From a virus (Duplodnaviria; Heunggongvirae; Uroviricota; Caudoviricetes), in IMG/VR virus record IMGVR_UViG_2675903324_000005: DNA of 37,769 nucleotides. The stretch is one strand, 5' to 3'. Each line of letters opens with the position of its first letter. The stretch's first letter is position 1. Made by a program: the position numbers. Positions 21,001 to 24,000 of this stretch are shown piece by piece.

Positions 21001-24000
21001 ATTTAAAATGTCTAAAAAGATGTATTATTAAAAAGTTTAGCGTGTTATCTGAATACAGGATATCTTAAATGAAGAGTATAGCAACACTGGTTGTGTGTGC
21101 AATCTCCGGGATTGCCTGTGTAAATTTATCTGCACATGCAGCAGAAGGAAACCATACAATTTCTCTGGGGTATGCGCACTTTCAGTTTCCGGGACTGAAG
21201 GATTTTGTAAAGGATGCGACTGCTCATAACAGGGAGACTTTCAGTCATTTCGTCAACAGAAACTACTTTTCTTCATTGGGCGAATATACAGATGGTCGGG
21301 TCAGTGGATATGAAGGCAAGGATAAAAATCCACAGGGCATTAATATCAGGTATCGCTACGAGATAACGGATGATTTTGGCGTTATCACCTCTTTTACATG
21401 GACGCGTTCTCTCACTAACTCACAGACATTTATTGATGTGCAGTCAGCCGATCATACCAGGAAGATTAAGAATCCGGCAGCTTCTGCCAGAACGGATATC
21501 AGGGCGAATTACTGGAGTCTGTTAGCGGGGCCTTCATGGCGGGTTAATCAGTACATGAGCTTATATGCGATGGCAGGGATGGGCGTTGCTAAAGTTAGCG
21601 CTGACCTGAAAATTAAGGACAATATTAACAGTAGTGGCGGATTTTCTGAAAGCAACAGCACGAAAAAAAACTCCCTTGCGTGGGCTGCAGGTGCACAGTT
21701 TAACCTGAATGAGAGTGTTACACTGGATGTGGCTTACGAAGGTTCCGGCTCTGGCGACTGGCGCACGAGTGGAATTACTGCTGGCATTGGCCTGAAATTC
21801 TAACCTGTATCCGGTAACCGTTTACTACCCGCTGTGATGGCGGGTTTTTTATTGCCCGTACAGGGCAAAAACCGTAAATTATGCGTGGGTGCCTTTCGGC
21901 TGATGGCTGGAGGGTGAACCTGAAGGCCTGATGTGGAAAGGCCCCGAGTCAACTTAACGTTAACCCGAGGCCCTAACACTTCGTACCTTGACAAGTAGAA
22001 GGTTAGCGCCTCTCCACTCAGGAGGCAAGCGCTATGTCGCAAAAATCGCTTATCACCGTCACAATTTGTATGACGGTTATCTTCACCATCTGGATGTTAC
22101 ACGGCTCGTTGTGTGAGTTCCGGCTGAATTTGTGGGGAGCGGAGTTTGCGGCGTTCTTACAGTGTAAGCAGTAGGAAAACCGCGGCGGGGACGAAAGTCC
22201 CCGTCAACTGGTTGCTGAGGTTCAGCCGATATGGCACCCGTTTCAGGTGAGAGAATGAACGATAAAATTCTCCGGTATATGCAGCGTGTGGTGAGAAATT
22301 CCCGCAACCCTGAATTTATGAATGAAGTTAAAGACGCCTGCCTTAAAAAGCAGGCGTTTTGTTTTGAGGCACCTGATGGCTTTCTGGTGCTGCGTTCTGT
22401 GCTCAGTGCTGATGGTATCCCTTATGTTCTGGTGTTGCTGGGCGTGTGTACGGGGAGTAACAGTGTTGAACGTTATCTGCCGGAGGTGAAGACATTAACC
22501 CGTCTGGCTGGCGGACGTTGGGCTGAATTTCATACGGCAAGGCGGGGATTTATCCGGCTGGGAAAACGTCTGGGCTTTGAGCGAATGCCGGATGATGAGG
22601 ATGGCTTCATGGTGTTCAGGATAGCGGTCTGACTGCCACAGTTTTCATCATCGTGTTTAAACCAACATTGCAATTCACATTCTGACCCTGCTCCGGCAGG
22701 GTTTTTTTATTATCCAGGGGGCCATTATGGGTGGAAGTAAAGGTGGTGGTGATACCAAAGTAAAACCAACAGCAGCGCAAATAGCACAGGAAGAAGTGGC
22801 CTGGAAAGGGTGGCAGGATTACAAAAATATCCTCCGCCCGGCTGAAGATAACTTCATGGAAAAGGTCGATGACCTGAACAGTGAGCAGCAGTACGACAAT
22901 ATTGCTGGCACCACAAATCTGGGGTATCAGAAACAGTTTGGCGAAGCACGGAAGGAGCTGGCGGGTAATCTTGCTCAGTCCGGTGTTGACCCGTCCAGTG
23001 GTCGCTTTAACGCGGTAATGAATGCGAACCAGAGTGATCAGGTAACCGGGCAGATTGACACAACCACACGGGGGCAGGTATCGCAGGCAGATAAGTATGT
23101 TGCCGGGCTACAGGATGTTGCTGCTCTCGGTTCTGGTCAGAAGGCGGATGCGTTACAGAGTTTTAACTCTCTGGCAGACAGCAGTCTGGCAAAAGCTAAA
23201 TCGGATGCACAGGCGGCGTTTACGAAACAGCAGGGGCGAGCCTCTCTTGTTGGCGCTGGTCTGGGTGCGGCAGGTGCATATGCGATGCATAAGGCTGGCG
23301 GTAGCGGAGGAAGTGGCGGTGCTAAAACACCTGGCACCGGCGCTAATGCCATTCAGCATCAGGCTCAGAACTGGAGACTGTGATTATGGAGTACGGTAAA
23401 TACGAAACACTTGCAAGATACGGTTATACCGGAGCAGCCCGCCCTCAGGGGGACTGGCAGACATCCGCAGCGCTGACCCGCCAGCAATACGACGACTGGC
23501 GCACCAGATATTTACCCCGAGTAGCAAGGCTGGCTGACCTTGGGGAGAACAACAGTCTGATGAATGCACAGCTTGCACGGGTGGGAGGCCTTGCCACTTC
23601 CAGTCTCCGTACAGCGCAGATGGCGCAGGATAACCAGATGGCGAGATACGGGGTAAACCGCCCGGATAATCCCGACAGTAATACGCTGGGGTTACGTAAT
23701 GCCCTGGCAATTGCTGGCGCGAAAAATGGTATCCGTGAAGCCGAACAGGATCGCCAGATGAATATTCTGACGGGGGCTTCTGCACCGGCAAGACAGAAAC
23801 TGAGTGTTGGCGGCCAACTGGTGGCAGCGTAAGGGGGCAATATGGGATACGGTTTACTGGATATTGCAAATCAGTCGCGGCGTGAGGCATTACAGGGAAT
23901 AAGTGACGCAGACAGACGACGTGAAGAAATTGAGGCTGCGAACAAACAGATGGCGGCGCAACAGAAAGCGCAGAACAAGCAGAATATCGGTACGGGCATT

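Follow-up and report, generated by a model that had tools for sequence, protein, structure and literature searches.

A probable second hok/sok-type cassette of Stx2a phages at the locus of the 24B_1 RNA

In a stretch of phage DNA of 37,769 nucleotides (nt) (IMG/VR virus record IMGVR_UViG_2675903324_000005; the whole stretch is called the window here), a 46-codon open reading frame (ORF) lies on the plus strand between a lom-like gene and the internal virion genes. An earlier note, made from the sequence alone, had taken it for an unannotated HokA-like toxin gene of a type I toxin-antitoxin (TA) locus. Does this ORF belong to a hok/sok system with its own antisense RNA, and how does such a system relate to what has been published on the same DNA? 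We consider it very probable that the locus is a self-contained hok/sok-type TA cassette, a moron behind lom and the second such module of the phage, distinct from hokW-sokW. What was published as the precursor of 24B_1, a 20-nt RNA of phage Φ24B, is its Sok-like antisense RNA, and 24B_1 itself is an apical fragment of the Sok-like hairpin. The toxin gene is already known, annotated and catalogued, and belongs to a very well known family; what is added here is that it is part of a second, distinct hok/sok module, that this module has no conserved mok frame, and that it is the locus of 24B_1.

A Hok-family toxin and its structured mRNA

The ORF (22034..22174) is read directly from the sequence, as is the strong AGGAGG Shine-Dalgarno (SD) sequence that the earlier note had pointed out, which lies at 22020..22025, 8 nt 5' of the hok ATG. 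The product, MSQKSLITVTICMTVIFTIWMLHGSLCEFRLNLWGAEFAAFLQCKQ, has the Hok-family pattern ascribed to it: residues 8-44 match Pfam HOK_GEF (PF01848) with 33.2 bits (cut-off 22; E 4e-8), and PHROG 251 ('MokW-like host killing') matches with E 2.8e-24. C12, T14, C27, E28 and C44 are invariant in the seven distinct peptides of the subfamily, and correspond in the family logo to the conserved C16, T18, C31, E32 and position 48 (bioRxiv 10.1101/2025.08.07.668861). Two cysteines are hard-coded, C27 and C44 (the codon of the latter being TGT, 22163-22165). The ORF is intact in all alleles examined, and a dN/dS of 0.17-0.52, with synonymous sites near saturation, indicates that the coding sequence is under purifying selection.

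The closest characterised relative is HokA of E. coli K-12, with 46% identity and the TWM..SLCE and AAFL.CK motifs in common, and since both cysteines are encoded in both proteins, neither needs A-to-I recoding. HokA-like is an apt description to that extent. In contrast, HokA is chromosomal whereas the window's gene sits on a prophage cassette, and the two fall into different clusters at 60% identity (93 and 72, respectively). Moreover, we rejected an identification as HokA at the equivalog level, where the peptide reached 38.4 bits with NCBIfam NF007290 (cut-off 89); this score shows no specific affinity to HokA, because the second hok of the window scores alike (38.8 bits).

Whether the gene is unannotated depends upon the record. 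It was omitted from the original records of 933W, Stx2 phage I and Φ24B, a gap in the reference records that matters in practice, but RefSeq and the NCBI annotation pipeline (PGAP) carry it as WP_000078907.1 ('Hok/Gef family protein'), and other phage records label it 'small toxic polypeptide' or 'MokW-like host killing'. Fozo et al. (2010) had already put the number of Hok genes at 12 for EDL933 and at 14 for Sakai. A 2025-26 preprint on Hok diversity (Escalera-Maurer et al., bioRxiv 10.1101/2025.08.07.668861) finds up to 18 Hok toxins per chromosome of enterohaemorrhagic E. coli, and lists in its Table S2 a homolog, 72_1589, identical to the window's ORF in nucleotide and protein sequence. 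This homolog belongs to the high-abundance cluster 72 and was placed under an arabinose promoter (plasmid LRP157) for the preprint's toxicity series, in which 42 of the 45 Hok homologs assayed were toxic on induction. The three non-toxic exceptions were 19_179, 60_1482 and 69_1540, and we infer from the absence of 72_1589 among them that it is toxic. The preprint, by its own statement, analysed coding sequences and excluded Mok, Sok and mRNA structure; it mentions neither 24B_1 nor hokW.

If the ORF is a working hok gene, it should be embedded in a structured mRNA with a leader of the hok type. The leader is there, although at 147 nt (21887..22033) it is longer than the ~120 nt first proposed, and it does share blocks with the leader of the second hok locus of the window: GGGTGC, GAAAG(G)CCCC, CTTAAC.TTAA.C.GAGGCC, AGGTTAGC and AGGCAAG. 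The covariance-model search that the earlier note had proposed gave a significant match with RF01794, a model that in practice describes the sense strand of the hok leader as far as the AUG. The match takes in the whole model (1-157) and lies at 21887..22045 (+) (E 6e-7, 701 nt searched); with 37.9 bits it is under the gathering score of 59 and emerges only under an E-value threshold.

The predicted full-length transcript folds with a minimum free energy of -152 kcal/mol (z = -5.4) and has both ends paired, GGGUGCC...UCGGCUGA with UCAGCCGA...GGCACCC, as in the tac-fbi pairing of hok mRNAs. We aligned 12 alleles from +1 to fbi and obtained a consensus fold (RNAalifold) of 98 pairs, in which 95.4% of cells form a standard pair, compared to 35-45% if the partners are slid, and 16 pairs show compensatory changes, compared to 1-3 in the slid controls; none of 500 shuffles attained the observed pairing. 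Helix 1, the tac-fbi helix, joins 21887-21893 to 22233-22239 in the consensus, and the window's own fold extends it to 21887-21903 with 22222-22239; it is kept in 94% of cells, without compensatory change. Helix 7, which pairs the segment complementary to the Sok tail with the 3' untranslated region (UTR), has 10 pairs, three of them with compensatory change, and 95.8% of its cells paired, and such locking of the antisense target echoes the R1 finding given in the title of Thisted et al. Helices 8 and 9, which form the SD-sequestering hairpin, are paired in 100% and 91.7% of cells. The hairpin that the earlier note had seen after the hok stop, CGGGGACGAAAGTCCCCG at 22186..22203, is a conserved 3'-UTR stem (helix 17) with four covarying pairs. 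We had considered it as an intrinsic terminator and rejected this, as it has no U run and was not listed by the terminator scan. Mean pairwise identity is higher in the leader (0.84; 0.92 in the first 59 nt) than in the coding sequence (0.77), and since the coding sequence also has the dN/dS given above, both the RNA and the peptide appear to be under selection.

Removal of ~33 nt from the 3' end changes the predicted fold: the 5' end now pairs with 21933-21945, and a hairpin forms at 21967-22012 that draws in the strand that had masked the SD. This alternative fold is compatible with all alleles (92.6% of cells paired, compared to 35-55% in slid controls; 88% for the hairpin itself, with little covariation), and both partners of the 5' end, fbi and the ucb-like element, are compatible in 12 of 12 alleles. 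The columns hardly vary, however, and only two pairs covary. Covariation thus neither supports nor contradicts the alternative fold.

The Sok-like antisense RNA and 24B_1

The earlier note had placed an antisense RNA on the minus strand around 21950..22040. The strand holds, and the position shifts: the RNA would run from ~21996 down to ~21933, with its promoter at 22000..22028. This promoter has the hexamers and spacing of the sokW promoter (TTGCCT, 17 nt, TAACCT). Its -10 box does not vary among the 12 alleles, and its -35 box is TTGACT in 933W and Φ24B. In the hokW-sokW study, a sokW promoter-less mutant made with primer YO-421 lost protection from HokW (PMC8621323); the four mismatches of YO-421 to the window fall on the -10 box, CTAACCTA. 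The predicted RNA, with a single-stranded 5' tail and a 16-bp hairpin, folds with -33.5 kcal/mol (z = -6.2), and it is complementary in cis to the hok leader over its full length. All 11 distinct alleles keep this architecture, with variation in the tail and the hairpin apex. The variable 5' tail is presumed to be the recognition element, and would limit cross-talk among the hok/sok copies of one genome.

We also noted how the window's allele departs from that of 933W and Φ24B. The differences cluster in the Sok 5' tail and its target (21978-21991) and in the SD-hairpin loop (~22015-22022); in addition, the -35 box changes from TTGACT in 933W/Φ24B to TTGCCT, and the SD from AAGGAG to AGGAGG, while the Hok protein is unchanged. 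On sequence grounds, these patches look like allelic switching of antisense specificity.

A phrase in a review, 'lom-vb_24B_43 region', led us from this locus to 24B_1, which was described from 2223 identical 20-nt reads 80 min after induction of Φ24B (PMC4426718). The RNA finds its only exact match in the window within the Sok-like hairpin, where it takes in the loop, with 4 nt from the end of the 5' arm before it and 11 nt of the 3' arm after it. The published precursor of 80/81 nt (Φ24B 45661-45740) corresponds to ~21912..21990 of the window and overlaps the predicted Sok-like RNA, and the published p24B_1 boxes (-10 CGCTAACCT; -35 TTGACT in the Φ24B/933W allele) map onto the Sok promoter. 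Φ24B itself carries an identical, unannotated Hok ORF 73 nt from the 24B_1 site. As to the short minus-strand antisense RNA that the earlier note had asked for, minus-strand small-RNA reads from the same hairpin are published (PMC4426718). The published work places the 3' end of 24B_1 at a presumed Rho site and not at the hairpin followed by UUU. A further parallel is that the 24B_1 precursor binds Hfq with a dissociation constant of 25 nM, and that sokW is partly Hfq-dependent (PMC8621323). Neither the 2015 nor the 2023 paper on 24B_1 (PMC4426718, PMC10732415) nor a 2025 review uses the words hok, sok or toxin-antitoxin, and we found no link between 24B_1 and hok/sok in the literature searched, which does not include subscription journals.

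The same DNA has been published as a trans-acting regulator of d_ant and sdhB (PMC4426718, PMC10732415). We thus considered that the locus might be, as published, a microRNA-like gene whose 80-nt precursor gives rise to 24B_1, which represses d_ant and binds sdhB mRNA, such that the ORF is irrelevant. In favor of this reading are the many identical reads after induction, the effects of the deletion on lysogenisation, induction timing, burst, adsorption and gene expression, the complementation of these effects by a plasmid, and the weak binding of mature 24B_1 to sdhB mRNA in vitro. Our mapping of the primers, however, bears directly on the genetics. The arms of the 189-nt deletion Δ24B_1 map to 21785-21835 and 22023-22073. 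The deletion of window positions 21836..22022 takes out sok and, on the hok side, the promoter with the transcription start, the entire leader and half of the SD. The primers of the complementing clone map to 21724 and 22287 and span the entire hok/sok cassette, including hok; the 2023 paper gives the insert as the 189-nt region, which differs from this mapping. Since both the deletion and the clone involve hok, the 24B_1 genetics cannot separate the microRNA model from the hok/sok model. Likewise, the reverse transcription PCR (RT-PCR) behind the detection of the 80-nt transcript was primed with random hexamers and is blind to the strand, and thus cannot separate the antisense RNA from the hok leader or late read-through.

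Other observations also speak against the microRNA-like gene. The transcript is complementary in cis to the hok leader over its full length, the cassettes of P2-like prophages and of an O-island keep the hairpin whereas the 20-mer is not conserved, the hok mRNA's structure accounts for the conservation, and at 100 nM sdhB mRNA only 8% of mature 24B_1 was bound. We regard an RNA gene with an irrelevant ORF as improbable. The timing of 24B_1, the Δ24B_1 phenotypes and complementation in the absence of the Sok target nevertheless keep a trans-regulator model in play. Trans-regulation may be a rival or a second function of the locus; it and a hok/sok function are not mutually exclusive.

In pUC18, with the orientation of the multiple cloning site that we assume, Plac would read the Sok strand. 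We also entertained the idea that toxicity of the pUC18 clone with isopropyl β-D-thiogalactopyranoside (IPTG) came from Hok expression, and dropped it, as the paper describes the IPTG effect as one on host strains.

The hok/sok reading can be taken one step further: 24B_1, which for a decade has figured as the first functional RNA regulator of microRNA size in bacteria, would be a breakdown or RNase III product of Sok, the Δ24B_1 phenotypes would be those of hok/sok disruption, the control would be a switch without mok, and late-operon read-through upon induction may sponge Sok. We find this combination plausible but not quite probable. The broader claim of a type I TA locus with a Sok-like antisense RNA, made in the earlier note, is on firmer ground, given the Hok profile, the homology of the leader, the covarying structure, a promoter identical to that of sokW, and the published antisense reads.

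Table 1. Features of the hok/sok-type cassette and its borders, in window coordinates
Feature	Position	Strand	Description and basis
Intrinsic terminator of lom-like gene	21827..21850	+	ACCCGCTGTGATGGCGGGT plus T run; terminator scan; abuts hok promoter
Predicted hok promoter	21852..21880	+	-35 TTGCCC 21852-21857, 17-nt spacer, -10 TAAATT 21875-21880
Full-length hok-type mRNA (predicted)	21887..22239	+	~353 nt; 5' GGGUGCC, 3' GGCACCC; start of Rfam match, homology limits, fold
tac-like 5' element	21887..21903	+	GGGUGCCUUUCGGCUGA; pairs with fbi (full-length RNA) or 21933-21945 (3'-shortened RNA)
ucb-like element	21933-21945	+	GUGGAAAGGCCCC; partner of 5' end in 3'-shortened RNA
Sok-like antisense RNA gene	21933..21996	-	~60-64 nt; ~20-nt 5' single-stranded tail, 16-bp hairpin 21940-21972, UUUCC; predicted ends
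Exact match to 24B_1	21943..21962	-	TAACGTTAAGTTGACTCGGG; single exact match in window, 0 expected by chance
Predicted Sok-target hairpin of processed mRNA	21967..22012	+	GAGGC...GCCUC; RF01794 positions 84-122; fold of truncated RNA
Segment complementary to Sok 5' tail	21987..21998	+	Locked by long-range pairing with 22208-22220 in full-length RNA
Sok-like promoter	22000..22028	-	-35 TTGCCT 22028..22023, 17-nt spacer, -10 TAACCT 22005..22000
SD-sequestering hairpin	22004..22034	+	Hides AGGAGG 22020-22025 and A of AUG against CCUCU ~22011-22015
hok-family toxin coding sequence	22034..22174	+	46 amino acids, one predicted transmembrane stretch; Pfam PF01848, PHROG 251, RefSeq
Conserved 3'-UTR stem-loop	22186..22203	+	CGGGGACGAAAGUCCCCG (CGGGGACGAAAGTCCCCG); helix 17: 9 pairs, 4 with compensatory change
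3'-UTR partner segment	22208..22220	+	Pairs with Sok-target segment 21987-21998 (helix 7)
fbi-like 3' element	22222..22239	+	UCAGCCGAUAUGGCACCC; complementary to 5' end; cross-context homology stops here

Proposed control of hok and the points against it

How could such a cassette keep Hok silent? In R1, Sok blocks translation of mok, to which hok translation is coupled, and we looked for a corresponding frame here. An in-frame upstream extension of hok is closed by a TAG at 22004-22006, 9 codons upstream. We tried two further candidates and rejected both: an out-of-frame TTG ORF (21988..22116, 42 amino acids) is absent from the 933W allele, which encodes an identical Hok, and from most others, and ORFs opening at the conserved AUGUGG (positions 45 and 47 of the leader) vary in frame and end among alleles and have lengths within chance expectation.

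The elements of the cassette nevertheless allow a scheme of control in which the SD takes the place of mok. The weak constitutive hok promoter would give rise to an mRNA of ~353 nt that is closed by pairing of its tac 5' end with its fbi 3' end, with the SD held in a local hairpin and the Sok-binding segment locked by the second long-range helix with the 3' UTR. Because the SD is buried and the Sok-binding segment is locked, this closed mRNA would be neither translated nor attacked by Sok. Slow trimming from the 3' end would take away fbi and the 3'-UTR partner, upon which the 5' end would refold onto 21933-21945 and the target hairpin (21967-22012) would form. This hairpin would use the anti-SD strand and thereby expose AGGAGG, such that the target hairpin and the SD hairpin would compete directly for the same CCUC-containing strand. 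In the meantime, the minus-strand promoter would supply the unstable Sok-like RNA of ~60 nt, whose single-stranded 5' tail would pair with the target; the duplex would be expected to be cut by RNase III, and the anti-SD strand would be free to close the SD again.

According to this scheme, no Hok would be made so long as the phage DNA is present and transcribed. If Sok drops, through loss of the element, transcription shut-off or possibly titration by sense read-through of the late operon after induction, the 46-residue Hok, with both cysteines encoded, would be made, insert in the inner membrane and collapse it. We infer the transcript ends, the 3' processing, the switch without mok, the antitoxin activity of this Sok and the trigger; sokW, which is homologous to it, does neutralise HokW (PMC8621323).

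Several observations weigh against a hok/sok function. Comparison of upstream ORFs across alleles of the subfamily revealed no conserved mok reading frame, and for this reason the canonical control of hok by Sok does not apply as such, while the SD switch put in its place comes from folds whose key columns are invariant and show no covariation. The leader match lies under the Rfam gathering score, and a default Rfam scan misses the locus altogether, reporting only the second one (34870..35044, minus strand; 111.5 bits). A generic sigma-70 scan lists no promoter on either strand, both promoters being below its threshold. In the case of the hok promoter, this is because only 8 of 12 consensus positions match, compared to 7 of 12 in the Sok promoter; we called the promoters by conservation, by the borders of the cassette and by identity with the sokW promoter, rather than by consensus strength. 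The ATTGCC and TAnAnT pattern of the hok promoter, whose position is a prediction from sequence, is kept in 12 of 12 alleles.

The published biology of 24B_1 and of hok loci adds to these difficulties. In Φ24B, the 24B_1 RNA was reported at 80 min after induction but not at its start (time 0; PMC4426718), although the RT-PCR did not distinguish strands. A constitutive antitoxin would be expected to behave in the opposite way, as does sokW, which is present before induction and gone after (PMC8621323). The Δ24B_1 phage shows faster induction and a higher burst, which run opposite to the phenotypes of ΔhokW-sokW, in which growth arrest comes later and phage release is halved (PMC8621323), as well as lower lysogenisation and lower survival. 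Moreover, since the Sok target is gone in Δ24B_1, Sok made from the plasmid cannot act on the phage hok. What complements must then be either Hok from the plasmid or an effect that the RNA has in trans. Finally, chromosomal hokA, hokB and hokC, when tested, showed no post-segregational killing, according to the preprint's summary (bioRxiv 10.1101/2025.08.07.668861).

The last point raises the possibility that the locus is a decaying or inert relic, which makes no Hok natively and has no role in the phage, as reported for several chromosomal hok loci. The absence of a conserved mok, the loss of the cassette's own terminator in the 933W context and the weakness of both promoters by consensus would fit such a relic. 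In contrast, we would expect a relic neither to keep an intact ORF in every allele examined, with low dN/dS despite near-saturated synonymous sites, nor to maintain its regulatory RNA structure by compensatory changes. The coding sequence is not among the preprint's three non-toxic homologs, the antisense reads are published (PMC4426718), and the cassette is retained at 96-100% identity in ~170 Stx-phage records. Thus, we think a relic unlikely, and favor a functional hok/sok-type cassette.

The comparison with R1 hok/sok/mok shows which parts this cassette has kept. Both have a small hydrophobic toxin of the Hok family (PF01848), a structured mRNA of ~350-400 nt with pairing of its 5' and 3' ends and refolding (predicted here) after 3' shortening, and an antisense RNA of ~60 nt with a 5' single-stranded tail and a terminal hairpin, which is transcribed from a promoter inside the leader and is complementary to the leader upstream of the hok SD. 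Unlike R1, the cassette is phage-borne, has a leader under the Rfam threshold and lacks a conserved mok frame; its Hok is 46 rather than 52 residues long and 28% identical to that of R1, and its second cysteine is hard-coded, where the family frequently has a Tyr codon in a TACG (TadA-site) context.

Settings of the cassette and the second module of the phage

The complete hok-type transcription unit spans 21852..22239, and its borders emerge from comparison among genomes. The region is 100% identical in Stx2a-converting phages of the 933W/Sp5 type (Traversvirus: PA28, P27; the prophage of O157:H7 TW14359), to which the phage of the window belongs, and 96% identical in 933W, VT2-Sakai and Φ24B. 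A nucleotide homology search also gave more divergent homologs (75-85% nucleotide identity), present in 1750 of the 5426 complete E. coli genomes, whose similarity to the window is confined to 21867..22239. The cassette occurs in at least four unrelated contexts: in 933W-like phages it follows lom, in P2-like prophages it forms the end behind ogr, in a lambdoid prophage it sits between gpJ and a tail-fibre gene, and in an O-island it neighbours the ure genes. Across these contexts, homology starts at ATTGCC (the -35 box, 21852) and stops at GGCACCC (22239). The earlier note had described the locus as embedded in a structural operon, which is right as to position; the cassette is, however, a moron with its own (predicted) promoter behind the lom terminator, and that terminator is context, outside the cassette.

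Salmonella also contains homologs of the cassette. A protein-pattern scan of one genome per species gave four loci, two of them in Salmonella and one each in assemblies labelled as a 'Planococcaceae' metagenome-assembled genome (L012) and a 'Vagococcus sp.' (L014). The latter two, in assemblies labelled Firmicutes, carry an enterobacterial hok cassette with 76% protein identity; contamination with, or misbinning of, enterobacterial contigs is the most likely source. The cassette of P2-like prophages comes last in the element, behind ogr and by the host junction (serS, tRNA genes, yidD), a position that would fit with prophage stabilisation.

In settings other than that of 933W, the cassette is followed ~25 nt past fbi by a canonical terminator, which reads CCCGCAGCGTAAAAACTGCGGGTTTTCTTTTT or varies from it (for example in the P2-like prophages L003, L005, L007 and L009). 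The window lacks this terminator, and the next gene's ribosome-binding site lies directly 3' of fbi. That gene (22231/22255..22632) starts at ATG 22231, inside the fbi element, according to PGAP, or at ATG 22255 in the P27 record. We favor ATG 22255, because alignment to the PHROG 610 profile does not begin before residue 9; it is also preceded by a ribosome-binding site of its own, GGTGAGAG. Inside its coding region is a bidirectional terminator-like hairpin (22334..22357, both strands; ACGCCTGCC TTAAAAA GCAGGCGT, then TTTTGTTTTG), the first terminator-like site 3' of the hok unit, which may form the 3' end of the primary hok transcript. Farther downstream, an ORF of 2807 amino acids at 25400..33823 (+) probably encodes the giant internal virion protein (or injection protein) that is typical of 933W-like podoviruses.

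We also asked whether the cassette could be hokW itself, and rejected this, as the published hokW primers and probe (PMC8621323) map to 34.66-35.04 kb on the minus strand. The second hok locus of the window (~34660..35044, minus strand; 111.5 bits with RF01794) is the published hokW-sokW of Sakai prophage 5 (Takada et al. 2021, PMC8621323), which was assayed both as a TA pair and in phage release; its sokW promoter lies on the plus strand near 34887..34916. The two modules belong to the same phage type and share the same architecture, the same Sok hexamers and spacing and a link to Hfq. In contrast, HokW has 51 residues, is 30% identical to the Hok described here and belongs to the HokC/D type, and its upstream frame is open, such that a mok-type extension is possible, whereas here a stop lies 9 codons upstream.

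The modules also differ in how the C-terminal cysteine is specified. At the hokW end in the window (34723..34740, minus strand), the C-terminal Tyr codon (Tyr46) reads TAC followed by GAA, the TACG context in which TadA recodes Tyr to Cys by A-to-I editing in Hok genes (bioRxiv 10.1101/2025.08.07.668861). As read from the codons, the phage thus carries one 'editable' Hok, HokW, and one 'ready-made' Hok. We further observed that the window's sokW allele differs from that of Sp5 at 7 of 30 positions under the published sokW probe, a region that is the Sok 5' tail, and that an ATG in the Sp5 primer (CCATGCTGAAC), in frame with hokW, reads ATA in the window (TCATACTAGAC). If the Sp5 ATG is the start of mokW, the window's hokW allele would be without one.

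As a gene, the locus is routine, one more Hok toxin. As a module, it means that Stx2a phages of the 933W/Sp5 type have two different hok/sok modules each, while only 3.5% of Hok-encoding phages encode two Hok homologs (bioRxiv 10.1101/2025.08.07.668861). hokW-sokW was the sole module deleted in the study that tied Hok to the timing of lysis and to phage release (PMC8621323); the second module could mask or modify the effects of hokW-sokW, and hence those on the timing of Stx release. For the literature on 24B_1, the primer mapping points to a confound, in that the deletion removed the hok promoter, the leader and sok and the clone held the whole cassette, and once the locus is read as hok/sok, the 24B_1 RNA can be given a simpler origin. 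For the Hok family, a subfamily without a conserved mok, yet with every RNA element, provides a test case for control by Sok that is independent of mok.

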